A stretch of 63,632 nucleotides of DNA, the filler included, from Psammoneis japonica (Eukaryota): NCBI GenBank assembly GCA_008632985.1. It is 7 parts of 6 records of this genome, joined end to end, with 100 filler letters (N's around TTAATTAATTAA, not from the genome) between each part and the next. Parts side by side here need not be neighbours in the genome. Positions count along the whole stretch, not along the records: positions 29,159 to 54,064 come from QPGO01000038.1; 6 more parts are not named here. The stretch is one strand, 5' to 3'. Positions 21,990 through 54,164 of the stretch are shown piece by piece; positions within the stretch are counted from its first letter, which is position 1; each line of letters starts with the position of its first letter. A model generated the notes under the pieces. The model ran no database searches and was not told the origin of the DNA. It was given only the letters and a program-made list of their open reading frames with translations. A program made the translations under genes and the position numbers.

Positions 21990-22089
21990 NNNNNNNNNNN
22001 NNNNNNNNNNNNNNNNNNNNNNNNNNNNNNNNNTTAATTAATTAANNNNNNNNNNNNNNNNNNNNNNNNNNNNNNNNNNNNNNNNNNNN
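21990..22089. other. Artificial contig-joining spacer
   Basis: N44-TTAATTAATTAA-N44, with stops in all frames. Confidence 0.95.
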
Positions 22090-24838: not shown

Positions 24839-24938
24839 NNNNNNNNNNNNNNNNNNNNNNNNNNNNNNNNNNNNNNNNNNNNTTAATTAATTAANNNNNN
24901 NNNNNNNNNNNNNNNNNNNNNNNNNNNNNNNNNNNNNN
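24839..24938. other. Artificial contig-joining spacer
   Basis: N44-TTAATTAATTAA-N44. Confidence 0.95.
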
Positions 24939-29058: not shown

Positions 29059-29158
29059 NNNNNNNNNNNNNNNNNNNNNNNNNNNNNNNNNNNNNNNNNN
29101 NNTTAATTAATTAANNNNNNNNNNNNNNNNNNNNNNNNNNNNNNNNNNNNNNNNNNNN
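29059..29158. other. Artificial contig-joining spacer
   Basis: N44-TTAATTAATTAA-N44. Confidence 0.95.
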
Positions 29159-29519
29159 GCATGCCACGGGACCAACTGTGGACATGATGCGGAAGATTGC
29201 CGTCAGCTCAAGCACCACGTGAAACGTGTCAAGACTGGACATTCCAACAACGGAGGCGGCAAGCCCAACACAAAACCTCGGAATGAGGAAGATGTTAATG
29301 CTCTCATCGGATCGAAGGTCGAGGAGCACTTTGCCAATGCTCAGAAAAAGCGCAAGGCCCGCGAGGAGGAGCTTGATCACTTCCGCGACCTCAACCCAAG
29401 TGGTTCCGAAGACTCGGACGCCAGAGAAGGGGGCCGACACGATGCAGGCAGTTTTAATGCATTGGATGAATGTGTGAATGAACAACTGAACTACCATCGT
29501 ACACGTGTTGCAGGCCAAT

Positions 29520-30401
29520 CCCGCAAACGAGTTAAAAAGACTCATCTTGCTCCAATCTTGTTTGCAGCTGTGAATGCTGAACATGGCAAGGGCAAGACTC
29601 AAACCATTAAGACACTGCCAGACAGTGGCGCCAGCAGTGCTCCACTCGACAGTCGACACTGCAAACGTCTGCGAAGCCATTCAACGGCTGAGACAAACTG
29701 GCTACGGTGGCAGGCTCGTCTGGCACGTCTGACGACTGCACCGTTAAATTTCGGTTGCCAGAGTTGTCCGAAGCTGCAGAACTTGAGCATGCCGTCCACG
29801 CACACAACAGAAAGCAGGGCAAGTGCGATGTGATTGTTGGACGTGACATTCTGGAGACACAAGGCATTGACGTTGTCTTCTCCAAACAGATGACAGAGTG
29901 GCCATTGGTCAATGGAGAAGTGCCAATGAGGCACGTAGATGCTGCGGTGGAAACCTCCTTCTATCTTCAAGATCCAGAAGCCTTGTCTTCGGAAACCGAC
30001 CGGATTTCGCGCATTTTAGACGCTGAGCACGCGCCGGCCTGCCTCGAGGACATGACGCGAGGGGCAATGGGACTTTCCACAGTTCAACAAAACAACCTTT
30101 TGGCACTGTTGAAATGCCATGAGTCCTTGTTTGATGGGACATCAGGAGAATGGAAGGGAGAGCCCTGCCATGTCCAACTCAAGGAGGGTGTGGAACCATG
30201 CCATGCTCGTCCGCATGAAGTGCCTCGTGCGCACAAAGCTGCGCTGCGTAAAGAAGTAGAACACCTGGCACGTGTCGGTGTTCTCAAATGCGTCAACCGA
30301 TCCCAATGGGCAGCTCCATCATTTGTCATGCCGAAGAAAGATTTAACGGCACGCTTTGTTGATGATTTCAGAGAGCTGAACAAACGGATCAAGCGATTGC
30401 C
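29520..30401 (+). pseudogene. Gypsy pol 5' part: protease and RT N-terminus
   Basis: LPDSGAS, CDVIVGRDIL and SQWAAPSFVMPKKDLTARFVDDFRELNKRIKRLP. It ends at the Copia TSD. Confidence 0.85.
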
Positions 30402-30582
30402 GAATGAATGCCGATGCAGCCGCGTGGGGCAATGACAGCACCTTGAGCCCAAGAGCAGCAGCGACAAACCAAAGAGAACCCTGTGTCGATTAGAACGTGT
30501 GAGATTGTGGGAAAGAACAAACCACCAGATCGTGCGCGTCAGCCCCGGACCAGGGACTGACCGCTCCACCCAGATTTACTCG
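30402..30582 (-). repeat. Copia 3' LTR
   Basis: Direct repeat of 36358-36538. On the minus strand it is preceded by the G-rich PPT-like CGCGGGGAC. Ends are uncertain by about 1 bp. Confidence 0.9.
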
Positions 30583-30699
30583 GTCCCCGCGAAACGGCAG
30601 TGACAATGCCGATTCGTCTAAACCTGGAACATCCTCTCACAGAGAGGCAAACACAAAACCCAAATTCAGGCCACCAGCAATGCTGGCTTGGGAGGCCGA

Positions 30700-32674
30700 A
30701 ACAAGTGGGCGCGAGCCGCAGGTGTCTGGCCTTGGTGTCGGGGCTCTGCCAAAAGATGCAAGAGCAAAGTTTCCAATGCCGCTCTCCCGTCGTCACCTTC
30801 ACAAACAAATCCCGCCAAATTTGTGTCCGTGTCCTCCTTCCAACGCGAATGACGCCAGCCGCAACCGCTTCACGAACCAAATGACAGTTGACAGCATCAT
30901 GCTTCTTGTGCAACACAGATTCCGGAACACTGACGTTCTTCACCACGCCGCGGTTGTCGCAAAATGCATTGGCAGGGCCTTCAATCGGCACTCCAAACAT
31001 GCAAAGTTTGTGACGCAAAGCAACAATCAACTCCTTGCAAATGCGCATTGCAACCAATTCGCTGCCAAACGTCGCTGACTCCACTGTGTTCTGCCGCTTG
31101 CTAAACCAAATGATCGGAGCATTGTTCACGAATGTCAAAATCCCGCTGTGCGATCTGCGAGCAACAACGTTTCCCGCATGGTTGGCGTCAACAAATGCAG
31201 ACACATTTGCCGGGTTGCCACGGGGCTTGGGCATCCATGGCGGCAACTCCTCCTCAACGTCCCCATAAAACTCCGTCCAGTCCGCAGTGGAATTGAAAAC
31301 AGATTCGTCAATCACAGGCATCTTCGGGTCAAAACCAATGCGACCGACATTCAAATGCTTCTTCATGTGCGCGAACACATGGTGCAACGCTTCGAGGTGC
31401 CCTTTCCTTGGGTTGGCTTGACACTGAGAGAGAATAGAAACTTCATGCAAGATGTCGACACGGCCCAACTCGATCGCCCAACGACAAATGCCAATCAACT
31501 GCAAACACCTGTCCACCAAATCGGGTCCCAACTCGTCCGTCACGTCTAATTCCGGCTTGTGCTTAGAAGGCAGTGGGTCCCTCACATTGTTCTTCAAGAC
31601 TGCTCCGTCACCGTCCTCTTCTAACAGCCCTTCCACCGTCTTGATCGCCGACTTGACACACGACTTCGGCGAGCTTGCCCAAATGGTGCACCCATCTTTG
31701 GTCTGAACCTTCTCGACGTCGGCTCCAAGGCACAACGATGTCTCTCCTTCACTCCCAGGTTTGACAGCAAATGATTCACCCATGCTCTCGACAATGGATT
31801 TTCCTTGATGAGAAATGATTAGAATGTCGTCAACATGAACCAAAAGCATTTCATAATGCTCGTGCCCATCGTCACGAGTCGCCGCACGAACACAAACGTT
31901 GGGATCCGCCTTCGTTGATTCAAAACCCATGTTCCGTAAAACGGATGCCAATGCGGACCTCCAAGAGTGTCCAGAGCTCTTCAAACCGCACAGCGCTCGA
32001 GTCACAACTAGAACCTTGCCTTGGTGCTCTCCACATTCCCTGCCACCTTCGAACCAGATCTTCTCCGCACACGGGGCATTCAAGTGCGCGTTCTCCAGGT
32101 CGACAGCCGCAATGTCCACTCCATTCAATGCTGCCAGCAGGAATCCTAACCGCACGCCATCCCTCGAAACAACACTTGAGCATGTGATCGATGATGGTGT
32201 TTCCGCAGCATGACCTCCTGCAACAAATCTGGCCTTCCCAGTGAAATCCATCTTTGCGTCGAATGCCAAATGGCACCTGATCTCCTGACAACCACGCAAA
32301 GTTGCACTCTTGCCTTCCCGGACGACTTGAGGGGTTTCAGCTTCATGTTCGCGCCACGCTGCCTTGACCTTGTTCATCTCCTTGTCAATTGCGCGAGCCC
32401 AACAGTCCGTCCCCGTTTCCTGGTCAATCTTCAAAGCATCTTCCGTAGACTTGGGTAAACGTGTGCCGAACTTGTGGGCAGTGCGCCAATGTTTCTTCTT
32501 AGCCTTCGAGATGATGCGATTCCGCTTGCCTGAAACATGCGTGGCCCACCAAGCAAACGCCGGTTCTTCGGTTGACCTGTTCGCTGCAGCATGCTCAGCA
32601 AGCTCAATCGGGCTAGACTCCTTCAGATCCTTGAGTTTCACCCACGACAAGCTGCCGTCCTTCCATGCGACCAA
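30700..32674 (-). pseudogene. Copia reverse transcriptase and RNase H
   Basis: KARFVAGGH, DLENAHLNA, RALCGLK, LLVHVDDILII, FVDANHAG, SKRQNTVESATFGSE and FCDNRGV. Only 2 Tyr in the 711-aa ORF. Confidence 0.92.
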
Positions 32675-33156
32675 TGGGTTCCATCCTTTCGTAGTGTCTT
32701 CTTATGTTCGTTCCCGTCAGCTGTCTGAACTGTTCCTTCCTGGATCGGTGTAGCTTCGCCGGTCTTTTCGTGATCCTGTGTCTCCTGCAAAATAGAGTGC
32801 TGGTTGCCTTGCTGTCAACTTGAGCAAACACATTCTCCGCGATCACATTGGCAGCACGCTTGTCTCTGGCACCGTCTGTGCATTCAATCTCACATTCGCG
32901 GGTGTCAAACAATGGATTCTGATGCCGGGTTCCAATCAGTTGCCCATCCTGACCTCGTGCCCGCTTGACTGCGACTCCTCGCCGTTCAGCGTTAGTCCCA
33001 ACATCAAACACGAGTTCCATTCCAAGACATTGATCAATTGCCTGTTCGTCGTCGTCCTCGGGTCGTTCTCCTGGCAATGACATGTCCCCGCATTCCTCAT
33101 CGGTTGGTGTCACACCGCCTTCACATTCCATGCCGGGGTTGCCGTCGATCGCCAAA

Positions 33157-34020
33157 TCATCCAATGCAAATGCTGGTGCCCTTCGTCGCCTTGTAAAACG
33201 AAACTGGTGTCATCCAACCGTGCCCGAGTTGTTCGTCAAACTTGTCGACTTTCACACGAGTGTCCGGCTGCACCATGTCGGCCTGCGTTACATGCTCGAC
33301 CAAAGTCTTCGAAACCATCTTCCCGGATTCCGTGACAATCCAATGACACATGTCCGATCCGACCTTGTGAGACACACCAAGCCATCGTCCAAGCCTCCTC
33401 GGGTCATCTGTTACATTCGGCTTGTCGTGTCCATCCCACCACCAGACCAGATCACAGAAACCGAAGTCCAAACACTCGCCTGTTTTGGGTGTCTGACCAG
33501 TTGCCTCTTCACACCCAGTCCGTTTGTCGCGGCCTCTTGCCATGCGAGACACAAGTTCCGATTCACAAACTAGACCAAAATCCCACAATCGTTTCGGCAC
33601 CTTCTTCCTCGTCATCCGCAGGCGCCAACACTTAGCCAAGAACCCGATCTCTCTTTCTGCTGCGTGATTCTGATTCTTACGACCTTGTTCCGTTGTCCTG
33701 AGTTGGATCCTCATTCGACGTGTGTGTTTCACAAACTCAGTGCTTCGTCCTGTGAACTCTCCAGCACCATCCGACATGAGACACTCCGGCACTCCCACAT
33801 CGTCTGTAAAGTCAACGAGAGACAAACCTGCCTCCGACCTTGCGGTCATTGGCACAACCTTTACGAACTTGCCCTGAGCACAAACATTGGCACAAGTGTG
33901 CCGAGCAAAGACTTCACCTTGGACATTAACGTGTCCACAAACCATGTCCCTTTTGATCTTTTCCGATGCAGGTCCAAGTGATCCACCCTGACTCTCCTTG
34001 ACATTGGTTGGGTCACCGTC
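33157..34020 (-). pseudogene. Copia integrase
   Basis: WFVDT, DVGVPECLMSDGAGEFTG, QNHAAEREIG, VPKRLWDFGL and LGRWLGVSHKVGSDMC. Confidence 0.85.
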
Positions 34021-34444
34021 CNNNNNNNNNNNNNNNNNNNNNNNNNNNNNNNNNNNNNNNNNNNNNNNNNNNNNNNNNNNNNNNNNNNNNNNNNNNNNNN
34101 NNNNNNNNNNNNNNNNNNNNNNNNNNNNNNNNNNNNNNNNNNNNNNNNNNNNNNNNNNNNNNNNNNNNNNNNNNNNNNNNNNNNNNNNNNNNNNNNNNNN
34201 NNNNNNNNNNNNNNNNNNNNNNNNNNNNNNNNNNNGACTGGAGACAATCGAGTGAGTTCAGCTTCAACCTCGCCCCATTGGACTGCTTGAGACTTGGCCC
34301 TGTCGCTCTTCATTTCTGAAATCTGTTCCTGTCTCATGCCAGATGTCATCGAACGGACAGCGCGCATCTCAGATTGCTCCCTTGCACGCTGTGGTGAACC
34401 CACATCGACTTCCGTTGGACTCCACACGTCTCCTGTTGGCAGCA

Positions 34445-36120
34445 TCACTGGTGAGTTCTTCTCCTCCCAATCCGTGGAACACGAGACTTGAAAAATGCAA
34501 TTGTCCCCATGGAATTGAAAGGCATGAAAGCTTCATCAGCTTCGATTCCAAACCCATTTCGAGTGTCGCAAGGGTTGTCGTGTGCGGGCACATTGTGCGC
34601 TCGCAACTGATTGGGGTTCAACAATGAATGCTGCACGTCAGTTCCAAACCACAGCATTTGGTCTCCAACCAGCAAGCACTCGCGAGTCGTTTCCGGATCC
34701 GTCCATGCTGTGCAACAACGCGCCACAGGAATCTGTTTAACTGGCTCATGCGAATCTAGAAACGGGTGCACTTCACAGACTTCGTTCGTCAATTCCATGA
34801 GTTTCCAGTTAGCGCCAGCACAACAAGTGTCCGCATGAGTGTCACATTCGTTCCTTGCCATGAAGCCGGGTGTCGTTAAGTTCGTCATCGCGGTGGTGGT
34901 CGTTGACCTTGTCACACGTTTCGAAGTCACAGCAACGCGCCTTTTCGTTGCCTTCTCTTGCAAATGAAACATTGGGTGGGGTTTGGTTAACAACATGATG
35001 AGCAACATGAATGCAAATGATGTGTGTGCCAAATGCGCCAACGCTCCCGTAGTTGAAACCACCCCGATCAGTCAAACATGACCTTGACAGGCCCCTCGAC
35101 CGAAAGCGCGCCCATTCCTGCCACCACGATCACGGTCAGCTCCGCGACCGCGGCCACCGTTTTCACCTTGCGCTTGATCTTGCTGCCCTTGACCTTGACG
35201 GTCTTGAACCTGAGCTTCGGCTGCTTGCCTGTTGCCTCCGTCGCGTCCGCCTCTTCCTGCAGGGTTTCCTCGACCACCGCGTCCGTGCATCCTTTCACGA
35301 GCTTGAAAAACACAATTGAGACCTCCGTTAAAGCGCAATCTGTCCCATTCCTGGTCGGCAAATGTCCTCGTAGGATCCGACACATCGACTCCATCAATCA
35401 CAGTTGTGCGATCACCGCCCCTTCCTTGATGTCCTCCGCGTCCTCCACCACGGCCAAATCCACCGCCACGCCCACGACCGCCGCGATGGAAACCTCGGCC
35501 ACCACCGCCACCTCGGCTGATCTGAGAAATCTTGCGCTTCGCATGATGCCAGGCTTCCAACTGAGCACCTGCATGCAAACGAGAGACTTCGGATGAGAAA
35601 CAAGCACACGCCCCCGCGAAGTCACGAGGGCACTGGTTGCCAATGACGGCCGTAGCTGCCACAAGACGGGCATCCTCTGATTTGATGCCCTTCTGCAATG
35701 TTTCAACCTTCTGCCGAGCAGATGTGCTTTCATCTGGAACCTTGTCCAAAGTGGCAAAGGCACTGGTGAGTTTCTCCTTGAATTTCTCAAACGCAAGTGC
35801 ACCTTCCTTTTTGTAGAACTGGTCAACAACACCACAAACCTGCAATGCCGCGTCCACGTCAGCCGCCGCGGCCAAAGCCGCAAGTGCCACTGCTGGTGCC
35901 GCTGCCATCCTGTGACAAGAGAAACAGAGGCAACAACCCGCACAATGGGTCGCAATTTGGTGTGAGTGCGCATGGCACAGGAGGCCACACCGACCGGTGC
36001 TGTGACAACGGGTTCACGCAGCCAACTGACTTTGGGGTGATCAATCCCGTGTCGTTTCCATCGTGAGCACACGCTCGGGCATGCTGCCCAATGCCGCAGT
36101 CGCTCCACACCCGTTAACAA
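34445..36120 (-). pseudogene. Copia gag (RGG-rich C-terminus) and aspartic protease
   Basis: FEKFKEKLTSAFATL...KVETLQKGI, RGG repeats, DGVDVSDPTRTF, and protease ECDTHADTCCAGANW...SLLNPNQLR. Confidence 0.8.
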
Positions 36121-36342
36121 CATGGAGATGGTGACCATTTTGCGAGCATTTTCCGTTGCAAGCTGTTTCCTTTGGTCGTCATACGCGACACAGAGCACAC
36201 GCTGCACGCGACAACCCCCTTTCGACGCTGCGCGTGCGAATCAGTGCATTTTCTACAGCTGCTCGTTCCATGCACACAATCACAACAATCAACCGTTTGC
36301 AACGAGTTGTTTCCTTGTCCGTTTCGTTCAGCTTTTCATCAA

Positions 36343-36356
36343 TGGCTCTGATGAAG
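36343..36356 (-). other. Probable primer-binding site (initiator tRNA-Met type)
   Basis: The minus strand reads CTTCATCAGAGCCA next to the 5' LTR. The canonical iMet PBS is TGGTATCAGAGCCA; here TAT appears as CAT and the first three bases mismatch. Confidence 0.5.
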
Positions 36357-36357
36357 C

Positions 36358-36538
36358 AAACAAATGCCGATGCAGCCGCGTGGGGCAATGACAGCACCTT
36401 GAGCCTGAGAGCAGCAGTGACAAACCAAAGAGAACCCTGTGTCGATTAGATCGTGCAAGATTGTGGGAAAGAACAAACCACCAGATCGTGCGCGTCAGCC
36501 CCGGACCAGGGACTGACCGCTCCACCCAGATTCACTCG
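36358..36538 (-). repeat. Copia 5' LTR
   Basis: Direct repeat of 30402-30582. Confidence 0.9.
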
Positions 36539-36543
36539 TTGCC

Positions 36544-38824
36544 TCATCCGATTCCTCATGTCCAAGATGTGCCACTTGGGCTCAAAGGCTTTGTGTGGGC
36601 TGCATTGCTGGATTTAAACATGGGCTGTCATCACATCCGATTGGATGCTGACAGCAAGAAGCTCTGTGCGCTCATCTTCCCGTGGGGCAAGCATGAGATG
36701 CAGGCATTGCTCATGGGATTGTGCAACTCGCCAGACATTTTCCAAGAACGCATGTCAGGCTTGTTTGAAGATCTGTCGTTTGTTCGAACGCACTTAGATG
36801 ACCTTCTCGTTGTGACGAAAGGCACCCATGAAGATCACCTCAACAAACTTGAAGAAGTTTTGTTGAGGGTCCAGAAAGCAGGACTAAAAGTTAACGCAAC
36901 TAAATCTCACTTCTGTCAAACCCAATTAGAATGCTTGGGTTGTCTGGCTGACAGAGACGGAGTGCGACCAACACCTGATAAAGTCGACGCCATCAAGCGA
37001 ATCGCGACCCCAACCAACAAACGCGACCTGCGTTCATTTGTTGGCATGGTGAACTGCTGTCGCGACACGTGGATTAGACGTTCTGAAGTCTTGGCTCCGC
37101 CAACACGACTCGCAAGCGAGACTGTTAAGTGGGAGTGGACGTCCGTTGAAAACGAGGCATTCGAAACCGTCAAACGGGCAATGTCGGATGATGTTTTGTT
37201 GTCACATCCTGATTTTAACAAACCCTTTGAGATGCATGCCGATGCCTCTAAATGTCAATTGGGAGCAGTCATGTCCCAAGATGACAAACCTGTCGCCTTT
37301 TGCAGCAGAAAGCTCAACAGTGCGCAATTAAATTGTGCAACAACGGAGAGAGAATTGCTCGCCATTGTGAAGACGTTGAAAGAATTTCGAACGATTCTCC
37401 TTGGTCATCGTGTGATCACACACACTGATCATAAAAATCTTGCGCACAAAGTGTTCAATGCCGAGCGCGTCATGCGCTGGCGGTTGACATGCGAAGAATG
37501 CGGTCCCGAATTGCGCCATGTTAAGGGTGCCCACAACCCAGTCGCTGACGCTCTTAGTCGCCTTCGACTGGCACCCAGCTTGCCTTCCGAGGCCAATCCG
37601 GATGTAAAAGACACTCCATCGAGTCGTCCTTTGCATGAAGCCTTTAATGCAGACGCTCAAGATGAGCCATCTCTGCCTGTTAGCTTCAAGCGCATTCAAA
37701 AAGCACAACAAAAGGACAAGCGCCTGCTCTCACGAGCCAAGGACTCGTCCGACTGCTCCATTCGCGCGCATCGTGGGGAAGGGTCATCACGACAGTCAAT
37801 CTGTCATAAGGACAAAATCGCAGTGCCGCAGTCATTGCAGGTTCCGCTAACTGAATGGTGCCACGAGACACTGTGTCATCCAGGTGAGACACGTGCGGAA
37901 ATGTCCATTGCCCAGCACTTCTGTTGGCCTGGCATGAGGTCTGCGGTGCATTCTACGTGCGTTGAGTGCGATCGATGCCAGAAGACAAAACGCCGAACGC
38001 AGCATTGTGGGAAGCTGCCAGAAAAGGTCGCAGAGATAATTCCATGGGAGACTCCATGCACAGATGTGATGGGGCCACATAAAATTCAAAGACACGGAAA
38101 GGACACCTTGCAATTGTGGGCAGTCACAATGATTGACCCAGCAACCGGGTGGTTCGAGATTGAAGAAGTGTCTGCGAAATGCGCAGACATCGCAGCAAAC
38201 GTCGTGGAACAAACGTGGCCATGCAGACATCCGTGGCCAACCCAGGTGGTTTATGACCGTGGGACAGAATTTATGGCAGAATTCAGCCAGATGATTAAAA
38301 ATGACTGTGGGATTTTGAAGAAACCCACAAGTGAACGGAATCCACAGGCGAATGCCACAGTGGAACGTGTGCGCCAGACACTTGGCAACATGGTGCGTTC
38401 CTTTTCAGCACAGGACATGGAACTGGACGAAGATGACCCATGGAGTGGCATCCTCTCCGCAGTGGCCTTCGCCATTGGAGCTGCGGCACACACGACCACG
38501 CGTGCAAGTCCCATGCAATTGGTCTTTGGACGCGATGCGGTTTCATCTGTTGCCCATCGTGCCAAGTGGAAGCACATAGAAACCAGAAAGCAGAAGCTCA
38601 TCCACTTAAACAACAAGCGTGAAAATCAGAAACGCAAGGAGTGTCAACATGCCGCAGGGCAATTGGTGCTTGTCAAGCAGGAACAATCCTCTAAATGCGG
38701 TTCTAACAGCCATGCAGGACCCGCCAGTGTTGTCCGTGTGTGTGACAATGGCACGTTGTGCACCCAGAACGGAGCACTGACAGATGCGCACAATCTGCGG
38801 CAGATTGCACCCTGTCACCAGTGA
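36544..38824 (+). pseudogene. Gypsy pol 3' part: RT, RNase H and integrase
   Basis: LDLNMGCHHI, HLDDLLV, DASKCQLGAVMSQ, ERELLAIV, HTDHKNL, H-x4-H zinc-finger, YDRGTEF and NPQANATVER. One Tyr in 787 aa. Confidence 0.93.
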
Positions 38825-39289
38825 GACATTCTGTCACTTGACGGCCCTGATCATGGGGGAGTGTGCAGCATGCCTCGCTGCTGGACAACACGGTGAGACC
38901 GTGCATGAGCCTCTTGCACGTGGCAACGTGGTGTTGTTAACACGCACCTGGGAAGCACGACCACAGGAGGGCGTGGCTCTAGATCTCAGGCAATTCCAGA
39001 AGGATGCCAAGAGAGCATCCGTGTGAAGCACACCAGCCCGTCGTCTGGCCCACGATGGCAGCGTGATTCCACATGATGACATCACTCGTGCATGGCGCGT
39101 GATGGCGTGATTCGCACGATCCATGATGCGAACGCACGATCGATTTGATGCGATCCAAACGCGAACGAATGGGGATTTGGCAAGATTCCCCATTCGCACG
39201 ATCCCATTTTCTCTGCTCTAAACTAGCTCACAATTTTCACAACGACAAAGTCGCAACACATCTTCTTTTTCAGCGCCTGGTGCATGCAT

Positions 39290-39640
39290 GGGGCACGAGT
39301 GCATGGCTCTCTGCACTCAGTGAAATCCTGCTCAACGGCATGGAAAGAACACTTTGGCAGCTCAAGCTCATGCCCAGCTGCGCCCAGCAAATCATGCCAG
39401 AGTTGATTGTTGGGCCATGTCTTCAATTTAGACAACAAAGTGGCGGAAGACAAAGAATTGCTCACAGCTGGAGGTGTGCATTGATGGAGGTGCCAGACAA
39501 GCAACAAGGCAGCAAGGTTCAATTGGCTGGTGTCATGCTCCCCGACAGTGTTCCCCTCATGCCCCAAGTCCACGGACAGGGGAGGGACAGCAGGAGGTGC
39601 ACCTCTGGCCTGTCCAAATTGATGTTGACTCCATGTCCAA
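39290..39640 (-). mobile_element. Short non-LTR (LINE-like) RT fragment; second copy at about 52120-52465
   Basis: QLWHDLLGAAGHELELPKCSFH resembles the W..LL...GG.L...KC motif of LINE RTs. Confidence 0.45.
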
Positions 39641-39849
39641 AGTGCTCTGCTGCTGCATCCTCTGGAGCATCTGCTGCCATCCAATGTTTGAATGTCTTCG
39701 GATTGTCTTGAGGACCAGCTGGCACTTGAATGGTCTTGATGCTTGAGTCTGCTTTCTCCTTGAAAGCATCAATCTTTCGGAACACTCTCTTTGTCTCTTC
39801 TGCTTCTGCGCACTGCAGCTTGCAGCAGAGACCGCTGTTGGACGAAAAC

Positions 39850-40300
39850 ATGCCAAGATCTGGCAGCCGGCTTGCGTGGCTGTTCTTCAGTCTTCCAGCC
39901 TTCCATGCTTGCTTTTGCGTGTCCAGCCAATGTCCAAGTCTTTCTCCATTTTCAGGCTGTTTGAGAAGAGAAAACACAGTTTCCCAATGCTCAGCCAGAA
40001 TGTCCCACTTGGCTCTGGCCTTCTCCAGCAATTCCTGTTGAGAAGCATCAAGTTTCCTTTTCCTTGTGGCATCCCGTTGGTTGCTTGACCATTTTCCAAG
40101 GTTCTCCCAACCCTTGTTGTGGCACCTTGGCATGTTGCAATGTCCCTCCCGTTTCGTGAATTGCTTGAGAAGAGAGGGCATTGTGCCCCATTGATTTTCC
40201 CACAAGAGCCACTTGGCACCAGCCTCCTCAAGTTTTTCTTCTTTTTCAATGTTGAGCATGCTGAGCTTGTGTTTTGTGGCCACTGGTTGTCCAACCAAAT
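39850..40300 (-). pseudogene. Degenerate helicase-associated (HA) domain repeats
   Basis: W..M..LL.QF..REGHCNMP....LGKW..NQR.....LD..QQELLE and LGHWLDTQKQ. Confidence 0.65.
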
Positions 40301-40479
40301 TCCAAGAGCAAAGCCATCCTCAGCACATTCATTGGGAAGATCAGGCTGCAAGCAAAACATGGCGCCAATCTCAGCAACACAGCATTGTGGAAATGTGCTC
40401 TTTGTGCCAGAGGCATGTGTTTGTGAACAACATGGTTCACTGGCAGTGCTGCCAACAGATGCTCTCTATTTTCTTTTTT

Positions 40480-41717
40480 GCATGTTTGTTTTCCTTGAAA
40501 TGACATGCTTGTTTTCCTTGAAAAAACGTGCTTGTTTTCCTTGAAAGAACATGTTTGTTTTCCTTGAAACAACACGTTTGTTTTTGTCAAAACAATGTGT
40601 TTGTTTTTGTTGAAATGAAGTGTTTGTTTTCCTTAAAAAGACATGTTTGTTTTCCCTGAAACGACATGTTTGTTTTCCTTGAAACGACATGTTTGTTTTC
40701 CTTGAAAAGACATGTCTGTTTTCTGCAAAATGACATGTTTGTTTTCTTGAAAAGACATGTTTGTTTTTCTCAAAAAAACATGTTTGGTTTCCTTGAAACA
40801 ACATGTTTGTCTTCGTTGAAACAACATGTTTGTTTTCCTTGAAATGATGTGTTGGTTTTCCCTGAAACGACATGTTTGTTTTTGTTGAAACGACTTGTTT
40901 GTTTTCCTTGAAATGACGTGTTTGTTTTCCTTGAAACGACATGTTTGTTTTCCTTGAAAGAACTTGCATGTTTTCTTTCCTTGAAACAACATGTTTGTTC
41001 TCTTTGAAAAGACATGTTTGTTTTCTTTGAAAAGACATGTTTGTTTTCCTTGAAAAGACATGTTTGTTTTTCTTGAAAAGACATGTTTGTTTTTCTTGAA
41101 AATGAGTGAATGCTGTTTGTTTTCCTCAAAAGGACATGTTTGTTTTCCTTGAAAAGACACCTTTGTTTTCCTTGAAAAGACATGTTTGTTTTCAAGACAT
41201 GTTTTTTTCCTTGAAAACACGTGCATGTTTTCTTGGAAACAACACGTTTGTTTTCCTTGAAACAACATGTTTGTTTTCCTTGAAACAACATGTTTGTTTT
41301 CCTTGAAACGACATGTTTGTTTTCCTTGAAACGACATGTTTGTTTTCCTTGAAACAACACATTTGTTTTCCTTGAAACGACATGATTGTTTTCTTTGAAA
41401 CGACATGTTTGTTTTCCTTGAAATGCACGCTTGTTTTCCTTGAAATGACATGTTTGTTTTCCTTGAAATGACATGTTTTTTTTTTTAAACGACATGTTTG
41501 TTTTCCTTTAAACGACATGTTTGTTTTCCTTGAAAAGACACGTTTGTTTTTCTTGAAACAACATGTTTGTTTTCCTTGAAATGAAGTGTTTGTTTTCCTT
41601 GAAAAGACATGTTTGTTTTCCTTGAAACGGCGTGTTTGTTTTCCTTGAAACAACACGTTTGTTTTCCTTGAAAAGACATGTCTGTTTTCCTTAAAATGAC
41701 ACGTTTGTTTTCCTTGC
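40480..41717. repeat. 23-bp minisatellite array (consensus ACATGTTTGTTTTCCTTGAAACG), about 50 units
   Basis: Visible tandem units. The spurious ORFs have a 23-aa period, equal to 3 units. Confidence 0.95.
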
Positions 41718-42189
41718 AACAACTGGCATGGAAACTCTGGCGGCAAGCACCAACCTGAAAAGGACAAGCCCAGGATCTGGGCATGCCATTGCCCCATTGA
41801 AGAGTGGAGGGCTCCTGACGGTCCTGAGCAAAAGCAAGTTGAGAAGCTCCATGAGGCCAAGAAAGCTGGGAAAAAATGCAAAGCAGCAGCTGCATCCTTG
41901 GAGGCTGAGTCGGTCGATGCTGACACTCACGCTGTGAAAAGGACGGCTGTTGCCAAGCCTTAACCTGCTGATGAACAAAAGGACTCCAAAGAGTCAGATG
42001 AGCCACCTGCTGTCTGCACAGGCATGCAGTTTGGATGCAGCGCCCACAAGAAACCTCAGAAGGAGGAACGAACAGTTGTGCCAGCACCAAAAGGCATGGA
42101 GCCAACTGTTGCTGCACCTGCTGGCACTGTGCATTTATCCAGGTGATTCCCAAAGAACACGTGTGTCTCTTTGTCATCTGCTGGACATT

Positions 42190-42700
42190 CACATGGTGAA
42201 GCAACCAATGGCTTGGACTCGCACGCTGATGCGTGCGCTGTTGGGTCCAAATTTGTCATGTGCTCTGATGTTGACTGCGCTGTTGCAGTGCATCCTTGCT
42301 CCGAAGAGTGTGCGCCAATGAGGAGTGCTCTCATTTGTGCGGCTGCTGCCATGTGGGTTGATCCAACCAATGGATGGCCACACCTGCTGCCAGTCCATGA
42401 GGCTGTGTTTTTTGGGGACAGAATGACTGACACCCTGCTGTGCCCCAAACAACTGCGAGCGAGTGAGCTGACTGTCCACAACACCCCTCGCCAGTTTCGT
42501 CCCAACAGCACACACTCTGTTGTTTTCCCTGACTCGAAAATCAGGATGCCTTTGTGCACGCAAGGTGTTGCTGTGGTCTTTGACTCACATGAGCCAACTC
42601 AGGAGGATCTGGAGAACCTCCCCCGGCTGGAGCTCACATCACCCCTTGGATGGGAACCTTCTGCTGATGCCGCAGCACAAAAGGAGGAAGAGCGCGCATG
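42190..42700 (+). mobile_element. Copia protease-region fragment; partial copy at about 45240-45455
   Basis: GLDSHADACAVG...HEAVFFGDRMTDTLLCPKQLR...TPRQF. Confidence 0.75.
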
Positions 42701-42964
42701 TGCCAGTGTGCGCAAAGGACCAGCAAAGTCTGATGGACAGTTGACAATGGATGGGTTCCAGCCCCAGGTGGGACTTTTTGTGACATTTGCCCCGTGGAAT
42801 TCTGCGTGCGAGCTCTCTGCAGTTCGCACTCTGGTCAATGGACACATTTGTCTTCAACACAAAACAAATGGCCAAGTTTGCAGTGCATGTGTCTCTGTTC
42901 GCACTCGAAGTTTTGGACAACACGGCTGCCCTGCGCCATTCTTAAGACACTCGAGAATGGCGCA

Positions 42965-43850
42965 GAAGAAAAAAACATCAAAAGTTGCTGAATGGATCGC
43001 CTGACATTTGCACCATAAAATGATGCAAAATTTCACCAAAATCACGTAGAAATCTGCGTGCACGACATGCGACGTGATTCAAAAAACTGTCAATGTCACA
43101 ATTCAGCAGTGCGAGGTCCCACCCAGACCTGGAATGCGTCAATGATGAGTGCGACCAGGTGTGTCACTTCAACTCATTTGTGCCAGACGTCCCACAAAAA
43201 TGAGAGCATCATTGTGGATGCAAATGATGGCGATTCTCTGCATGCTGCTTGGTTGCTCAGGTGAGTGTCTCTCACAACCACATTGGGGGAGACGGGCCAC
43301 ATGACTGGCACAGTCTGTGCGTCCACCTGGATTGTGCTGAGTGGAGATGGGTGCATGCACTGTCGACCTTGAGTTGTGCATCGACTGTCACACCCAAGAT
43401 GCTCTCCAAGAGGTGGGACATTGGCCTGATGGCCGCCAAGAACACCCTCCGAGTGACAACCCAGGCAGGGGCCAGCAACGTCAAGATCATGGGTTGCGTG
43501 AGCTCTGGGTGCACGCTCAAGGACTAAAGTGTCTGCGAGCTGGAGGAGCAATTGGGCGCCCAGATCAGAAAGTGCCAGTTGTCTGACTTGGAAAGCAAGG
43601 CACGCTGGGCCATGTCCTCTGACCTTTGTGTCAAGTGGGAATTGACTGATGTTGAGCTGGAGCTGAAGAAAACTGAAAGGCGTCTTCCGACAAAGGCGTC
43701 AACCCCCTTGAGACCGCGGCACAGGCCTGAGCTGGACAGCTTGCCTGAGTTGAGTGCCAAAATGGCCAACTGTCATCAAGGCTTTGTTGGTGTGCTCCGA
43801 GTTGTTTGTTTTTCTTGAAAAGACATGTTTGTTTTTGTCAAAAAGACGCG
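42965..43850 (+). mobile_element. Composite repeat containing fused Copia pre-integrase and RT fragments; second copy at about 52470-53370
   Basis: VTPKMLSKRWDIGLMAAKNTLRVTTQ is joined directly to WAMSSDLCVK...HRPELDSLPEL...HQGFVGVLR. Confidence 0.7.
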
Positions 43851-44433
43851 CTTGTTTTTCTTGAAACGACATGTTTGTTTTCCTTGAAACGACATGTTTG
43901 TTTTCCTTGAAAAGACATGTTTGTTTTCCTTGAAACAACACGTTTGTTTCACATGTTTGTTTTTGTTGAAACGACATGTTTGTTTTCCTTGAAACGACAT
44001 GTTGTTTTTCTTGAAACGACGTGTTTGTTTTCCTTGAAAAGACATGTTTGTTTTTTTTTGAAACGACATGTTTGTTTTCCTTGAAAGGACATGTTTGTTT
44101 TCCTTGAAATGACATGTTTGTTTTCCTTGAAAGAACTTGCATGTTTTCTTTCCTTGAAACAACATGTTTGTTTTTGTCAAGACAACATGTTTGTTTTCCT
44201 TGAAATGACACGCTTGTTTTCCTTGAAAAGACATGTTTGTTTTTCTTGAAAAGACATGTTTGTTTTCACTGAAATGACATGTTTGTTTTCCTTGAAAAGA
44301 CACATCTGTTTTTCTTGAAATGACATGTTTGTTTTTCTCAAAAACAAGATGTTTGTTCAACATGTTTGTTTTCTTTGAAAAAACATGTTTGTTTTCCATG
44401 AAAAGACATGTTTGTTTTCCTTGAAAAGACATG
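43802..44433. repeat. 23-bp minisatellite array
   Basis: Same unit as 40480-41717. Confidence 0.93.
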
Positions 44434-44434
44434 T

Positions 44435-44763
44435 GGGCAGGCGGTGGGAGCCACCACCCACAAGAGCCGTGCCTGTGCACAGATTGCTGCCGCGAAGTGC
44501 ACCAGATGGGGTCATTTTGCTTTTGACCAGTGCGTGCAATGCCATCAGAAGGCTTGCGATGACTTGTCTGAGCTCGACGAGCCAGCGGCCGAGACCAAGA
44601 AGGTCTCTGACTTTCTCAAGGGTGTTTTCGACCCTGGGTTGGAGACTGGTGAGAGTGCAGTGGATGGAAATCTGATGAAGCCAGCAGACTTCAAAGCATG
44701 CCAGCAGTGTGCAAAGATTCTGGTGGAGAATGCCAAGAACCACAACGCTGATGCTTGCATGGC
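44435..44763 (+). mobile_element. Copia gag fragment
   Basis: FAFDQCVQCHQKACDDLSELDEPAAETKKVSDFLKGVFDP. Confidence 0.6.
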
Positions 44764-44994
44764 TCAGTGAGCCGAGCATGCACATTTCTCATTTGACCAT
44801 CGCAGGTCCATCTTGTGGGGGGTGTCAAAATGTCGTGCTTCAATGTGCGAATTTTCAATTTCACACAACCTCAACAACTGCACACACAATGTGACGATTG
44901 ATCCTCGAGACGCATCAAAGCACAACGTTTTGGCACCCCCCACAAGACAGACCTGTGATGGTCAAATGAGAAATGTGCATGTTCGGCTCACTGA
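44764..44994. mobile_element. MITE-like foldback element, 231 bp with ~84-bp terminal inverted repeats
   Basis: 44764-44847 (TCAGTGAGCCGAGCATGCACATTTCTCATTTGACCATC...) is the reverse complement of 44911-44994, with a few transitions. Confidence 0.85.
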
Positions 44995-45108
44995 AGGGAC
45001 CCCAAAGACACCACCATTTGCACTCAATGATCGATTTTGACCAAATGCACACTTTTTGCCACACCCGACTTTTGCCAATTTTGCCTGGTCAATCCGTGGA
45101 TGCGGTGT

Positions 45109-45808
45109 TAAAAAGACATGTTTGTTTTCCTTGAAACAACATGTTTGTTTTCCTTGAAACAACACGTTTGTTTCACATGTTTGTTTTCCTTGAAACGACA
45201 TGTTTGTTTTTCTTGAAACGACGTGTTTGTTTTCAAGGCCTCGATGTTGCAGTGCATCCTTGCTCTGAATGTCCCCATTTGTGTGGATGCTGCCATGTGG
45301 GTCAATCCAGCCAGTGGACAGCCACACCTGCTGCCAGTCCACTGGGCTTTTTTTTTCAGAGACACAATGACTGACACCCTGCTGTGCCCCAGCCAACTGC
45401 AAGCAAGTGAACCGACTGTCCACGACACCCCTCGCAAGTTTGATCCCAACAGCGCACACTCTGGACGTCCACCAGGATTGTGCTGAGTGGAAACGGGTGC
45501 ATGCGCTGTCGACCTTGAGTCGTGCATCAACTGTCACAACCGAGATGCTCTCCAAGAGGTGGAATGTTTGTTTCCTTGAAATGACACGTTTGTTTTCCTT
45601 GAAAAGACACGTTTGTTTTCCTTGAAATGACATGTTTGTTTTCCTTGAAAAGACACATTTTTTTTCTTTGAAACGACATGTTTTTTTTTTGAGTGACATG
45701 TTTGTTTTCCTTGAAACAACACGTTGGCTTTCCTCGAAATGACACGTTTGTTTTCCTTGAAATGACTTTTTTTTGAAACGACGTGTTTGTTTTTCTTGAA
45801 ACAACATG
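45109..45808. repeat. Two short 23-bp minisatellite blocks (45109-45235, 45563-45808) flanking Copia fragments
   Basis: Same unit as 40480-41717. Confidence 0.85.
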
Positions 45809-46359
45809 AGTTTGCCTTGAATTCTGCACAAGAATGCACTGACGGATGCAAACCAATGCGATTCCATGTGCAGGAGAACAGCATCTGCACCCCACAAGAA
45901 GCTCGCGCCTGTCCCCAAGTTCAGTTGGATTCATGAGACTGCAATGTGCAGCAATTTGTTTGGTTGATCCTCTCCCAGATGAAGATGTGTGACACCTCTG
46001 GAATGCTTGAACAGCACCCGCAACTGAGCAACTCCTTGTTTGATGTCTGGCGGTCAAAATCCTCCACCGCCAAGAGCTTGTGGGCCACACAAGATGAGTT
46101 GTTTTGTGTTTCAGCTGCACCCACATTTGACAATGTGAGCCGCACTGCTTTCTGTCAAGCGGCAAGCAAGTGCTTGGGGAGAAAGTTCTTGTCAGGGTGA
46201 GCACAGGTCATTGAGGAGAGATGACATGCATGGCAGCATCTCCATGTTTCTGCATGACAAAGCGAACAAGATCAAAGGAAAAGAGCTGCAGCATCGCTCT
46301 TGTGTCGGAGTTTCTTCAGCTGAGTCTTCTGGGCACCAATTGGAGCCAAGCAGTGGTTG

Positions 46360-47400
46360 TTGCAGGGGGGCACTGAAGGGACACAGCCCACTGGCAGGGC
46401 ACTGATCAAACAAGATTTGCGGCGCAAGTGTTTGGCGCTGGGGGCACCTTTGAGGCTTTGTGCCCTCAGCCATGTTGTGCAATTCTAGATTTTGTGCCCT
46501 TGACCTTTTTGTGCCCTTGGCTGTTTTGCACCCTTTCCTTTTTTTGTGCCCTTGAGCACTTTGCCCCATCTCGTGGTTTTGTGCCCTTGGCCATTTTGCG
46601 CCCTTTGTGACTTTGTGCCCTTGGCCATTTTGTGCCTTTTTTGGCTTTGGGCCCTCAGCCGCATTTGGCGCCCCTCCTGATTTTGTGCCTTCAGCAATTT
46701 GCAGCATGCATGCAGACAAAAGGTCATTTTTGTCACGCCCTTTGTGACATTTAAAGGCTGCAACACATCGCCGTGATGCATTGGCTCTTGTCAGTGGCTG
46801 TGTGTTGCACTCCTCCCCATGCATCACGCGTCCATGCGGCTCTTTACCAACGTGTGCTGACACTGCACGGTTTTGGCGGAACAGTGTGGGTGCGTGCGAA
46901 GGAACACACAGAACTGCACAGAGTTTTGCGCTTTCGACAGTGATCAACGTTGCTGCAGACAACTCCCACTCGGGTTTCGAACCCCTGGCCTCCTGCCCAG
47001 TGGTTGCGATGTGCCACTCCGCTGTGAATTCACAATGCAGCATGCATGCAGACAAAAGGTTGTTTTTGTCACGCCCTTTGTGACATTTAAAGGCTGCAAC
47101 ACGTCGCCGTGATACATTGACTCTTGTCAGTGGCTGCACATTGCAAATTTTTGGCCATTGTGGTTTTGTGCCCTTTGCCACCTTGGGCCCTTTCTGATTT
47201 TTTGCCCTTGGCAGCTTTGTGCCCTCAGCCACCATTTTGCACCCTCAGCCATTTTGTGACCTCAGCAACTTTGTGCCCCTGCCTGGTTTGTGCTCTTTGT
47301 GATTTGGCGCCCTCAACAGACATTTTTTGTCCTTTTTGATTTTGTGCCCTTGGCCATTTTGCTGGTCACGACAGAGCTGCAGAACAACAAGAACCTGCCC
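46360..47400. repeat. Degenerate TTTGTGCCCTT-core repeat blocks, homologous to 50880-51860
   Basis: TTT(T)G(T/C)GCCCT core roughly every 17-20 bp. An internal duplicated insert occupies 46700-47140. Confidence 0.8.
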
Positions 47401-47419
47401 GATGAAGAACGCGGGGCAA

Positions 47420-49060
47420 AGGAGAGAAAGTGCGCGAGATGCCTGAAGCACTTCATGGCAGGGAACTCCAAGAATGGAGATGCAGAAGGGAGCACACCCA
47501 GGAAATGCAAGAGGGAGGATTTTTGCAGGAAGACTGTGGCAGAGTGTGGCAGGAAAGCGGGGGAGGGGGGCAGTGGGTTGGGGGATGAGGAAAGCCACGT
47601 GGGGGGTTGGACCCAGACACATGAGCTGGAGCCAACACCTGTTTGGCAGAGAATGTGTGAAAAGTGGCAGTCACGTTTGTTGCAAATGACGTTGCAGGCA
47701 CAATCCAAATTGAGCGACTGCGCTCCACGGTGCCAGCCGGAGAGCAACCGGGGAAGGGCACAACACAAGCGGCACTTTGGGAAGCCAGTCAACCAATCTG
47801 TTGTCAGTCAGTTGTCGAATGTGTTTGAGTGGGCGCGCCGGAGTTTTTGGCCCGCTCGCTTTCTACGTGGCCTGGTGCAACCCAAATCTGTGTGGGCTCA
47901 GCACGCTTTGCCCTGCAGAACAGTTTTTGGGAGTGTTCTCTGGCTCGCGGCTCAAAATGGCACACAAAACGGCATGGACAATGGCGTTTTGCCAAGTTGA
48001 AAAATGTGATTGTCTCTGAGGTCGGAACCTGGATGCTCTCAACAGAGTTCGGTTTGTTGTGTCATCTTGTGCGAGATGAGCTCAAGAGCGCCCAGGCTCA
48101 CATGGGCAGATTGTGGCGAAAATTCTTGCTGAAGGTTCGCATTGACAATGTCGCTTCTGTTGCTTCACAACCAGCCTCATGCACTGCCATTTGTGCTGTG
48201 TGTTTTGTCGAGGCTTCATGTGTTTGCAGCCGTTCAATTTGCGTGCAATTTCTCTTTCTGCGCTGTTCTTTTGTTCTGTGGGGTCTCTGTTGTCATGAGG
48301 CACCCCAGAGACACTTTTTCTTGTCTAGAATGTCATCTCTAAAGTGCAGTGGCCACGGCAATTCAGTGACGAAGCCAAGTCACAGACACAGCATCAGGAA
48401 GAGTTCAAGACAAACACGGCAACTTGGAGCCATGACGTCTTGAGCTGGTTGAGCTCTCAAGAGCTCAGACACATCATCGCGCAGCTTTGACAACATTTCT
48501 CCCCCACTGTCCATGGTGATGCTGAGTTTGATTTGGCAGACCAGCGCATCATGGTGACTCCAAAGGCAAAGATTGCTTCTTTTGGCTGTGGGGCTGTTTG
48601 CAACCTGGGAACATGTGGCTTGTTTGCATGAAAGTGCGCGAGATGCCTGGAGCACTTCACGACAGGGAACTCCAAGAACGGAGATGCGGGAGGGAGTGCA
48701 CCCAGGAAATGCAAGAGGGAGGCTTTTTGCAAGAAGATTGTGGCAGAGCGTGGCAGGAAAGTGGAGGAGGGAGGCAGTGGGTTGGGGGATGAGGAAAGCC
48801 ACATGGCGGGTTGCACTGAGACACACGAGCTGGGGCCAAAACCTGTTTGGCGGACAACGTGTGAAAAGCAGCAGCCACCTTTGTTGCAAATGACGTTGCA
48901 GACACAATCTAAATTGAGTGACTGCATTCCATGGCACCAGCTGGAGAGCAGCTGGGGAAGGGCACAACACAAGCGGCGCTTTGGGAAACCAGTCAACCGA
49001 TCTGTTGTCAGTCAGTTGTTGAATGTGTTTGAGTGGGTCCGCCGGAGTTTTTGGCCCGTT
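47420..49060 (+). repeat. Local dispersed duplication (about 47420-47860 vs 48630-49060; 47860-48280 vs 50260-50660)
   Basis: Shared text such as GGGGATGAGGAAAGCCAC...GTCAGTCAGTTGT. Confidence 0.75.
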
Positions 49061-54064: not shown

Positions 54065-54164
54065 NNNNNNNNNNNNNNNNNNNNNNNNNNNNNNNNNNNN
54101 NNNNNNNNTTAATTAATTAANNNNNNNNNNNNNNNNNNNNNNNNNNNNNNNNNNNNNNNNNNNN
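54065..54164. other. Artificial contig-joining spacer
   Basis: N44-TTAATTAATTAA-N44. Confidence 0.95.

Follow-up and report, generated by a model that had tools for sequence, protein, structure and literature searches.

Why has the dinucleotide TpA (TA) almost disappeared from a Gypsy-type retrotransposon of Psammoneis japonica, and why do the sites that remain keep to a few sequence contexts? The question is posed by positions 36544-38824 of the DNA analysed here, a stretch of 63,632 nucleotides (the window), where a segment of the Gypsy pol gene encodes reverse transcriptase (RT), RNase H and integrase. The 2281 bases of the segment hold exactly 30 TA, distributed as TTAA 9, CTAA 6, TTAG 5, ATAA 5, TTAT 2, and one each of GTAA, CTAC and ATAG. 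Thus, 28 of the 30 lie within TTA or TAA, 20 are YTAR (R, purine; Y, pyrimidine), and none is RTAY, in line with a first-pass annotation of this DNA that had estimated about 30, about 28 and none. The same annotation placed three of the four tyrosine (Tyr) codons left in the Gypsy, Copia and PIF1 open reading frames (ORFs) of the window in a TTAT context, and named TTAG as the single TA common to both long terminal repeats (LTRs), which belong to the Copia element. These sites are found at 38252, 31855 and 31267, with the fourth Tyr codon, CTAT, at 60993, and at 30491/36447 of the LTR pair.

Among the readings weighed below, the one that probably applies is that the transposon DNA of the window underwent a repeat-directed, post-integration change of A:T to G:C, confined to TpA and running at a rate that depends on the flanking bases, through a protein that reads those flanks. 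The change itself (TA to TG or CA) hit both strands about equally, site by site, and its rate falls in the order R-T-A-Y > Y-T-A-Y, R-T-A-R > Y-T-A-R. The earlier proposal had been that (non-T)TAY is the preferred target and that YTAR is resistant. RTAY is indeed lost first, and YTAR, TTAA above all, lasts longest, but a TAY rule read on a single strand is incomplete, as the bases at +1 and -2 of the mutated A both act.

Surviving TA sites and the mutational loss of TA

Survivors were compared with two baselines. Baseline (a) consists of pol ORFs from metagenomic relatives of this Gypsy in which TA is normal, pooled from 65 of 80 fetched loci with an ORF of at least 500 amino acids and a TA observed/expected ratio (O/E) of at least 0.5 (183,561 bases, 11,961 TA). 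The search patterns behind this set demanded two retained tyrosines, which biases it to unmutated copies, as was intended. Baseline (b), with 1002 TA sites, is the window's genic DNA. The relatives carry 26.7% RTAY, 48.6% mixed and 24.8% YTAR sites at a median TA O/E of 0.81. The segment, with 0, 10 and 20 sites in these classes, stands against 8.0, 14.6 and 7.4 expected from the relatives (chi-squared p=2e-7) and 8.7, 16.6 and 4.7 expected from genic DNA (p=4e-14), and the chance that at least 28 of 30 sites fall in TTA or TAA is 9e-9 by the former baseline and 6e-10 by the latter.

The bias extends over the neighbouring transposon DNA. The 92 TA of positions 29159-39000 divide into 2 RTAY, 38 mixed and 52 YTAR, and the 52 TA of 39001-57000 into 2, 21 and 29, with TTAA accounting for 18 of the 52. 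In genes no class is rarer than TTAA (O/E 0.31), yet it is the best kept in transposable element (TE) DNA, with an O/E of 0.74 in 29-39 kb and 0.24 in 39-57 kb, where the other classes have values of 0.00-0.37 and 0.00-0.05, respectively. When the O/E of the NTAN tetramers is compared between TE and genic DNA, a check that the first-pass annotation had suggested, depletion is far from uniform, even with the control for codon use that the Gypsy relatives provide.

The elements and blocks on which the remaining evidence rests are as follows:

36544-38824, plus strand: Gypsy pol segment with RT, RNase H and integrase (Pfam RVT_1, RT_RNaseH_2, Integrase_H2C2, rve); 30 TA, TA O/E 0.22
29692-30432, plus strand: 5' part of the Gypsy pol, from protease to the N-terminus of RT (BLASTP to relative P0002 residues 101-334, 50% identity, E=4e-84)
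30407-36538, minus strand: Copia-type element nested in the Gypsy, with 176-bp LTRs at 30407-30582 and 36363-36538 (direct repeat, 96% identity)
30542-32701, minus strand: Copia pol ORF (RVT_2); 44 sites for ancestral-codon inference
60252-61757, plus strand: PIF1-like helicase ORF (Pfam PIF1), probably belonging to a DNA transposon; 29 sites for ancestral-codon inference
29159-39000, no strand: moderately mutated TE block containing the segment 36544-38824; TA O/E 0.17, CpG about normal
39001-57000, no strand: older block of repeats and satellites, TA O/E 0.044, CpG-poor too; independent test DNA for the flank rule

The depletion of TA in this transposon DNA is mutational, as the proteins that it encodes show. 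The three TE ORFs were aligned with public relatives (120 of the 120 listed hits for Gypsy, 119 of 120 for Copia, and 77 of 79 for PIF1), from which three relatives with less than 2% Tyr had been dropped. Tyr makes up 0.12% of the Gypsy ORF as against 3.86% in its 120 relatives, with Cys and His raised, and the corresponding values are 0.28% and 3.81% for Copia (119 relatives) and 0.20% and 3.12% for PIF1 (77 relatives). Columns were called conserved where at least 60% of the relatives agree, and the 57 conserved-Tyr columns of the three ORFs now read Cys (TGY) in 26, His (CAY) in 23, Tyr in 2 (both TTAT), and another residue in 6. Residue classes other than Tyr are kept in 53-98% of columns, and the lowest of these, Ile, Thr and Val, lose residues by changes of the TA type (I>V/T/M, T>A, V>A). 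Catalytic motifs were not spared; GYYHI of RT has become GCHHI, and Y-DD has become HLDD. A change of the first base from A to G at conserved codons that begin with A was preceded by T in 25 of 30 cases, as compared to 17 of the 217 such codons that are unchanged (Fisher p=2e-18).

At the level of composition, the O/E of TG and CA together rises to 1.4-1.9 where that of TA is 0.0-0.3, and several 1-kb bins of 39001-57000 are without any TA. The changes are almost exclusively A>G or T>C on TpA, and the depletion is confined to repeat-like DNA, the neighbouring genes being spared: TA O/E falls from 0.54-0.57 in the genic DNA (1-29 kb) to 0.17 at 29.2-39 kb and 0.044 at 39-57 kb. The Cys and His fates are balanced (26:23), and no strand runs of these fates were found along the three ORFs (14 runs with 13.5 expected, 10 with 8.9, and 3 with 4.0); thus, the coding strand was neither favoured nor avoided, and nothing in these old elements points to long single-strand tracts.

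The genic part of the window (1-29 kb) holds ordinary genes, including those for a subtilase, a D27-like protein, Nipped-B, RIO1 and coatomer beta in a Pfam map of the window, and the named protein matches of the window are to the diatoms Fragilaria, Thalassiosira and Seminavis. Two small TA-poor pockets lie inside it. One of these, 3001-4000, has a TA O/E of 0.14 and a TG/CA value of 1.32, and its ORFs have no Pfam match; it could be the remnant of an old TE or a piece of a gene that has been mutated. From 29.2 to 57 kb the DNA is derived from transposons and satellites, and TpA is nearly gone. The nested Copia splits the Gypsy pol into two parts, and contigs from other genomic copies join 30401/30328 straight to 36580/36649, at similar depth on both flanks. 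The TE families are highly repeated, as 6141 contigs of sequencing run X1 match the stretch at a likeness of at least 80%, with transitions at 1029 of the 1218 variable places (A>G 235, T>C 229, C>T 277, G>A 288). Of the four runs compared, X3 and X4 contain short and diverged pieces only. Copies mutated in the same way are carried by other public records, since relatives P0137 (Copia) and P0314 (PIF1) have only 0.29% and 0.57% Tyr, with His and Cys raised.

Within the TA-free block, arrays of a 23-bp satellite in up to 54 copies occupy 40481-41720, 43803-44434, 45116-45766 and 53307-54064, and a second family with a 17-bp period occupies 46457-46689 and 51010-51725. The flank rule was derived from sites whose ancestral state can be inferred from codons, which leaves the 23-bp satellite aside. 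An ORF with a helicase-associated (HA) domain (Pfam PF03457, E=5.5e-16) also lies in this block, on the minus strand at 39522-40319. On both strands of 29000-57000 only TGA is left as a stop codon, and TA-free DNA, being almost without stop codons, fills with long spurious ORFs; many long ORFs here have no family match. Six identical masks (44 N, 12 bases, 44 N) at 21990-22089, 24839-24938, 29059-29158, 54065-54164, 59789-59888 and 62056-62155 are located where TA-normal DNA gives way to TA-poor DNA or where a young repeat ends, and may hide element termini.

Strand-resolved effect of the flanking bases

The survival of NTAN tetramers in double-stranded DNA cannot separate a pyrimidine at +1 from a purine at -2, as each is the reverse complement of the other. 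The outcome of a mutation does carry the strand, because TA>TG records a change of the A on the strand that is read and TA>CA a change of the A on the opposite strand. For one window and three elements, with ancestral states given by the majority residues of protein relatives at about 33-69% identity, codon inference yielded 141 ancestral TA sites: 51 Tyr codons, 42 sites that straddle two codons (T|A), and 48 NTA codons (Ile, Leu, Val). At Tyr codons all three outcomes are visible, the 6 columns with another residue being dropped, and at T|A sites a site is seen as TG or as kept.

Both flanks leave their trace in the counts. Arranged by the +1 base, T|A sites were mutated in 1 of 10 cases before A, 3 of 8 before G, 12 of 13 before C, and 9 of 11 before T (Y versus R, p=3e-5); arranged by the -2 base, in 12 of 14 cases with a purine and 13 of 28 with a pyrimidine (p=0.02). 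For the combinations of -2 and +1, the fractions are 10/10 for R,Y, 11/14 for Y,Y, 2/4 for R,R, and 2/14 for Y,R. The NTA codons behave in the same manner, with sites kept and sites changed on the opposite strand numbering 0 and 10 for GTA, 1 and 7 for ATA, 6 and 5 for CTA, and 10 and 3 for TTA (p=8e-5).

Raw fractions of this kind are biased by hidden outcomes, and so a competing-risk model was fitted by maximum likelihood, in which the rate per strand is t·a(-2)·b(+1), under the assumptions of multiplicative flank effects and one exposure time. On the 141 sites, the negative log-likelihood (-lnL) is 115.2 with no flank effect, 105.1 with -2 only, 90.8 with +1 only, and 84.4 with both, such that each flank improves on the other alone (-2, p=3.5e-4; +1, p=1.3e-10). 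In the fit with both flanks a(Y)/a(R) is 0.26 (bootstrap 0.08-0.53) and b(R)/b(Y) is 0.13 (0.04-0.23); counted from the mutated A, the rate thus drops about 8-fold when +1 is a purine and about 4-fold when -2 is a pyrimidine. With four levels, the rates at +1 are T 1, C 1.5-1.6, G 0.24-0.25 and A 0.09, and those at -2 are A 1, G 0.74, C 0.29 and T 0.21. Estimates are stable over consensus thresholds of 0.5-0.9, and differ little between Gypsy and Copia or from one of the three site types to another. The fates of YTAY Tyr codons, 11 Cys to 7 His, reject the pure TAY rule, where +1 acts alone and 85% Cys is expected (p=0.014), as well as the pure RTA rule, where -2 acts alone and 26% is expected (p=0.002), and agree with the 67% expected when both act (p=0.62).

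For double-stranded classes, the fitted loss rates are 0.036 for TTAA, 0.075 for CTAA/TTAG, 0.14 for CTAG, 0.30-0.60 for the mixed classes, and 2.0-2.2 for RTAY (ATAT/ATAC/GTAC), a range of about 60-fold per double-stranded site and about 30-fold per strand. Remaining TA sites are therefore mostly the slowest-reacting ancestral ones. In ORF 36392-38821 of the Gypsy, 23 of 31 TA lie in codons for residues common to the relatives and 8 do not, so most of its surviving sites are ancestral.

The rates also predict survival in DNA outside the fit. In 39001-57000, the enrichment of classes among survivors follows the fitted rates with a Spearman coefficient of -0.90 by the relatives baseline and -0.93 by the genic one, and in the right-hand TE outside the PIF1 ORF the coefficient is -0.81. 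The influence of sequence extends beyond the tetranucleotide. Among the 180 surviving TA of all TE-like DNA (360 flanks), the +2 base is A in 45%, compared to 25-27% in the baselines (p<1e-13), so an A at +2 (on the other strand, a T at -3) gives additional protection, and recognition probably covers six base pairs, or else the structure of A/T runs plays a part. T is the base most depleted at +2 of survivors, and G, at 19% versus 22-23%, shows no marked loss.

Action on integrated DNA and rival explanations

The two LTRs of the nested Copia differ at 7 columns, which amount to 5 events, namely two TG<>CA doubles, one TA<>CA, one CG<>TG, and one transversion, 3 of the 5 being TA-derived. LTRs are identical at insertion and these now differ by TA-derived events; the action thus came after integration. 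Each TG<>CA double is the trace of an ancestral TA that was mutated independently in both LTRs, on opposite strands. A double necessarily combines the two fates, one in each copy, and is uninformative on strand preference. A young inverted pair of about 2.5 kb (22302-24838 and 57256-59788, 99.25% identical) has 5 differences, of which 3 are TA<>TG, at CTAC, CTAC and GTAC; these occur in both copies and seem to show the process at an early stage. In the young repeat, here taken as 22090-24838, the initial stretch of about 750 bases (22090-22839) holds a single TA, and the rest has a TA O/E of 0.5-0.97, with a sharp boundary near 22840. The targets are not only retroelements, as the loss of TA extends to the helicase-type PIF1 element and to the satellite block.

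With respect to mechanism, the agent would be a protein whose recognition site spans no fewer than four base pairs around TA, probably six, and which would be directed to silenced repeats. There, adenine would be deaminated to hypoxanthine, which is read as G, by an enzyme of the deaminase fold (TadA/ADAT-like or of another clade). Adenine deamination is favoured because of the T at -1 as in TadA/ADAT substrates, the UAC>UGC recoding by TadA, and the proposal of the Bigelowiella authors described below. As a statement of the chemistry it is put forward tentatively, at somewhat less than an even chance; the sequence does not distinguish it from a route through thymine. R-T-A-Y is its own reverse complement, and equal weights for -2 and +1 are only marginally disfavoured, so the enzyme may recognise a duplex tetranucleotide and attack either strand. 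A bolder version, doubtful at present, is that R-T-A-Y is the recognition site of a duplex-reading, palindrome-type enzyme that marks TpA, on A or T, in the silenced repeats of diatoms. Such a mark would be a second epigenetic system resembling that of CpG, whose mutational decay erases TA as that of 5-methylcytosine erases CpG, and the flank rule would be the first description of the target site of its enzyme.

Several observations weigh against a flank-reading mutator as the source of these patterns. Contexts that were thought resistant do mutate, as seen in the TTAY Tyr sites (4 His, 4 Cys, 2 kept) and in the two TG<>CA doubles of the LTRs, which lie at CTAA and GTAA; the flank rule is therefore a gradient of rates and not a motif. 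Its calibration uses ancestral states from the residues of relatives and not from sister-copy DNA, and the flanking bases may have changed as well. How much -2 counts relative to +1 is uncertain, equal weights not being rejected (p=0.059), and the PIF1 ORF fitted alone is degenerate, with too few kept sites. In 29-39 kb outside the fitted ORFs the Spearman coefficient is only -0.50 by the relatives baseline (p=0.14), with -0.78 by the genic one, and CTAC/GTAG is over-represented (10 of 43). A test at the level of composition, from the excess of NTGN classes, cannot separate the models, as genic and young-TE baselines give opposite answers and as CpG decay and satellites confound it in the old block. 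Across 11 repeat pairs in the window, only 41 of 287 difference events are TA-derived (29 TG<>CA doubles and 12 TA singles), with 82 CpG-derived, 103 other transitions, and 61 transversions; processes other than TA loss therefore dominate divergence in the old block. The known enzymes also differ: in the available text of the respective articles, the amphioxus ADAT2, the one ADAT2 shown to deaminate adenine in DNA, prefers GAA (PMC10354150), and ADAT-type editing of fungal mRNA favours A or G at +1 (PMC10027721).

The alternative closest to adenine deamination places the chemistry on thymine, and is rather unlikely. The T of TpA in silenced repeats would be modified, for instance by a TET/JBP dioxygenase that makes 5-hydroxymethyluracil or 5-formyluracil (5hmU/5fU), and would mispair with G to give T>C, such that the flank rule is the recognition sequence of the modifier and TA loss the thymine analogue of CpG decay. 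All of the counts fit this equally well, because A>G is T>C on the other strand and R-T-A-Y is self-complementary; TpA is symmetric like CpG, which suits a maintained mark, and CpG decay accompanies TA loss in the older block. To our knowledge no thymine modification of the 5hmU/5fU type is known in diatoms, a point on which no dedicated search was made, and the route would require 5hmU/5fU to be mutagenic enough. In dinoflagellates, 5hmU produced by a TET/JBP enzyme is enriched on TEs, which it silences, and older work reported preferential replacement of T in TA and TC (PMC11572971, PMC11071213), but no sequence motif for 5hmU was found in Breviolum at base resolution (PMC11071213), and the Bigelowiella authors favour adenine deamination (bioRxiv 10.64898/2026.01.13.699255). 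An improbable explanation through DNA mechanics holds that TA at junctions of T and A runs (TTTAAA-like) breathes or flips less and is reached more slowly by any agent acting on TpA. The protection that reaches +2/-3 and the retention of TTAA, by far the best-kept class, are consistent with this, but the orders at +1 (C>=T>>G>A) and -2 (A>=G>C>T) are base-specific and not plain effects of A/T runs, and CTAG and CTAA/TTAG are protected without A runs.

It has also been considered that the remaining TA are in equilibrium, re-made from TG or CA by ordinary C>T and G>A changes and persisting where removal is slowest, which has little probability as a general account. Survivor counts are roughly proportional to 1/rate, for 8 of the 31 TA of the Gypsy ORF the residue is unseen in relatives, and the mixed classes are commoner in the oldest block (21 of 52) than simple exponential decay predicts, so that some TA of 39-57 kb have probably been re-made. 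However, the other 23 lie in residues shared with relatives, for instance conserved Leu TTA/CTA and T|AAR Lys, the inferred counts of mutated and kept sites do not depend on the origin of survivors, and the same rule for removal rates is implied either way. Editing of double-stranded TE RNA by an ADAR-like enzyme, with fixation through reverse transcription, is very improbable and was rejected. ADARs, which as far as we know are restricted to metazoa, prefer a 3' G, and here G at +1 is about 4-6 times worse than C or T; in addition, TA changes set the LTRs of a single insertion apart once it had integrated, satellites and a DNA element of helicase type were hit, and so were both strands, equally (26 Cys, 23 His). 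On the other side, retrotransposons are among the targets, and A>G with U at -1 corresponds to the 5' preference of ADAR as given in the available text of the Bigelowiella preprint (bioRxiv 10.64898/2026.01.13.699255). The least credible account needs no mutator at all, the elements having always been TA-poor and TTAA-rich through codon use or selection. The genes of the window are indeed TA-poor too (O/E 0.55), but relatives of the same Gypsy are TA-normal (median O/E 0.81, 27% RTAY), the excess of TG/CA mirrors the loss of TA, and conserved Tyr is kept in 2 of 57 columns and replaced by Cys or His in 49, catalytic motifs included.

Comparison with known systems

A TpA process of this type is in print once, for Bigelowiella natans, an unrelated alga, in a preprint, and a literature search found no description of TpA hypermutation in diatoms. 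This window adds a control for codon use from relatives, the strand-resolved separation of the two flanks (+1, about 8-fold; -2, about 4-fold), and an out-of-sample check. An A:T>G:C mutator aimed at transposons would represent a principle of genome defence that mirrors RIP and APOBEC and, if the agent is an adenine deaminase, a natural DNA adenine deaminase, an activity otherwise known mainly from laboratory evolution of TadA. The fingerprint could help to identify the enzyme, and the target rule (R-T-A-Y fastest, TTAA slowest) provides a biochemical test of candidates on RTAY and YTAR oligonucleotides, single- or double-stranded. It further predicts that the age of a TE insertion can be read from the NTAN classes that it still holds. 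For annotation, gene callers would over-predict in TA-free DNA on account of spurious long ORFs. The rule also predicts that the 231 mutations reported in the Bigelowiella preprint, as far as its available text describes them, are enriched at RTAY (bioRxiv 10.64898/2026.01.13.699255).

According to the available text of that preprint, TpA-restricted hypermutation acts on integrated giant-virus and virophage DNA of B. natans (bioRxiv 10.64898/2026.01.13.699255). The likeness lies in changes that are nearly only A>G/T>C at TpA, giving TpG or CpA, in their confinement to foreign or repeat-like DNA, and in TpA-poor, CpA- and TpG-rich clusters that include RT and DDE-type domains there; an ADAT2-like deaminase is proposed by the authors, and the main text contains no analysis of flanks. 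The systems differ in that Bigelowiella is a rhizarian alga and the host here a diatom-like stramenopile, in that the process was shown there by mutation accumulation and is inferred here from fossil sequence, and in that TA loss here is near-complete (O/E 0.04) and accompanied by CpG decay. Dinoflagellate 5hmU, in the parts of the articles that are available, resembles the present case as a silencing mark on thymine that is enriched in TEs, with an early reported preference for TA/TC, and differs in that no mutational decay is described and no motif was found in Breviolum (PMC11572971, PMC11071213).

The resemblance to TadA/ADAT begins with the base directly 5' of the edited A, U or T in both. 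For TadA, the available text of one study gives the motif UACG and the recoding of Tyr UAC to Cys UGC in E. coli mRNA (PMC10027721), the same codon change as that found here, where C is favoured at +1. The present process differs in that T at +1 is nearly as good as C, in the preference for a purine at -2, and in its chromosomal DNA substrate. The first-pass annotation had judged the pattern closer to UAC of TadA than to UAG of ADAR, and this stands as a resemblance (T at -1; C or T far above G at +1). The strict UACG rule is not reproduced, as C is not required at +1 and there is no sign of a need for G at +2, and chemistry on thymine would give the same pattern. Early adenine base editors (ABE) have a YAC preference.

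In Neurospora and other ascomycetes, repeat-induced point mutation (RIP) is a repeat-directed change of C:G to T:A at CpA that creates TpA and stop codons. Both processes are repeat-directed, dinucleotide-specific, transition-only hypermutation of integrated DNA that kills transposons, but the direction here is opposite, in that TpA is destroyed, TG/CA is gained, and ORFs are left open. RIP is set off by sequence duplication; here the TE families are highly repeated, and the 99.25% pair is largely unmutated over about 2 kb. APOBEC3 and AID are cytosine deaminases that act on single-stranded DNA with marked strand clustering. They share with the present case an innate-defence mutator that can be read from a -2/-1/+1 context fingerprint in retroelement DNA, and differ in their target, which is cytosine rather than adenine or thymine, and in the strand runs that are absent here. 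In CpG decay, 5-methylcytosine of a symmetric dinucleotide in silenced repeats is deaminated to give TG/CA. The two kinds of loss occur together in the 39-57 kb block (CG O/E 0.3-0.8), but their chemistry differs and CpG decay is the slower here, the 29-39 kb block having lost about 80% of its TA at a CG O/E of 0.86-1.16 per kb. In DNA of like kind, TA thus appears to be lost much sooner than CpG.

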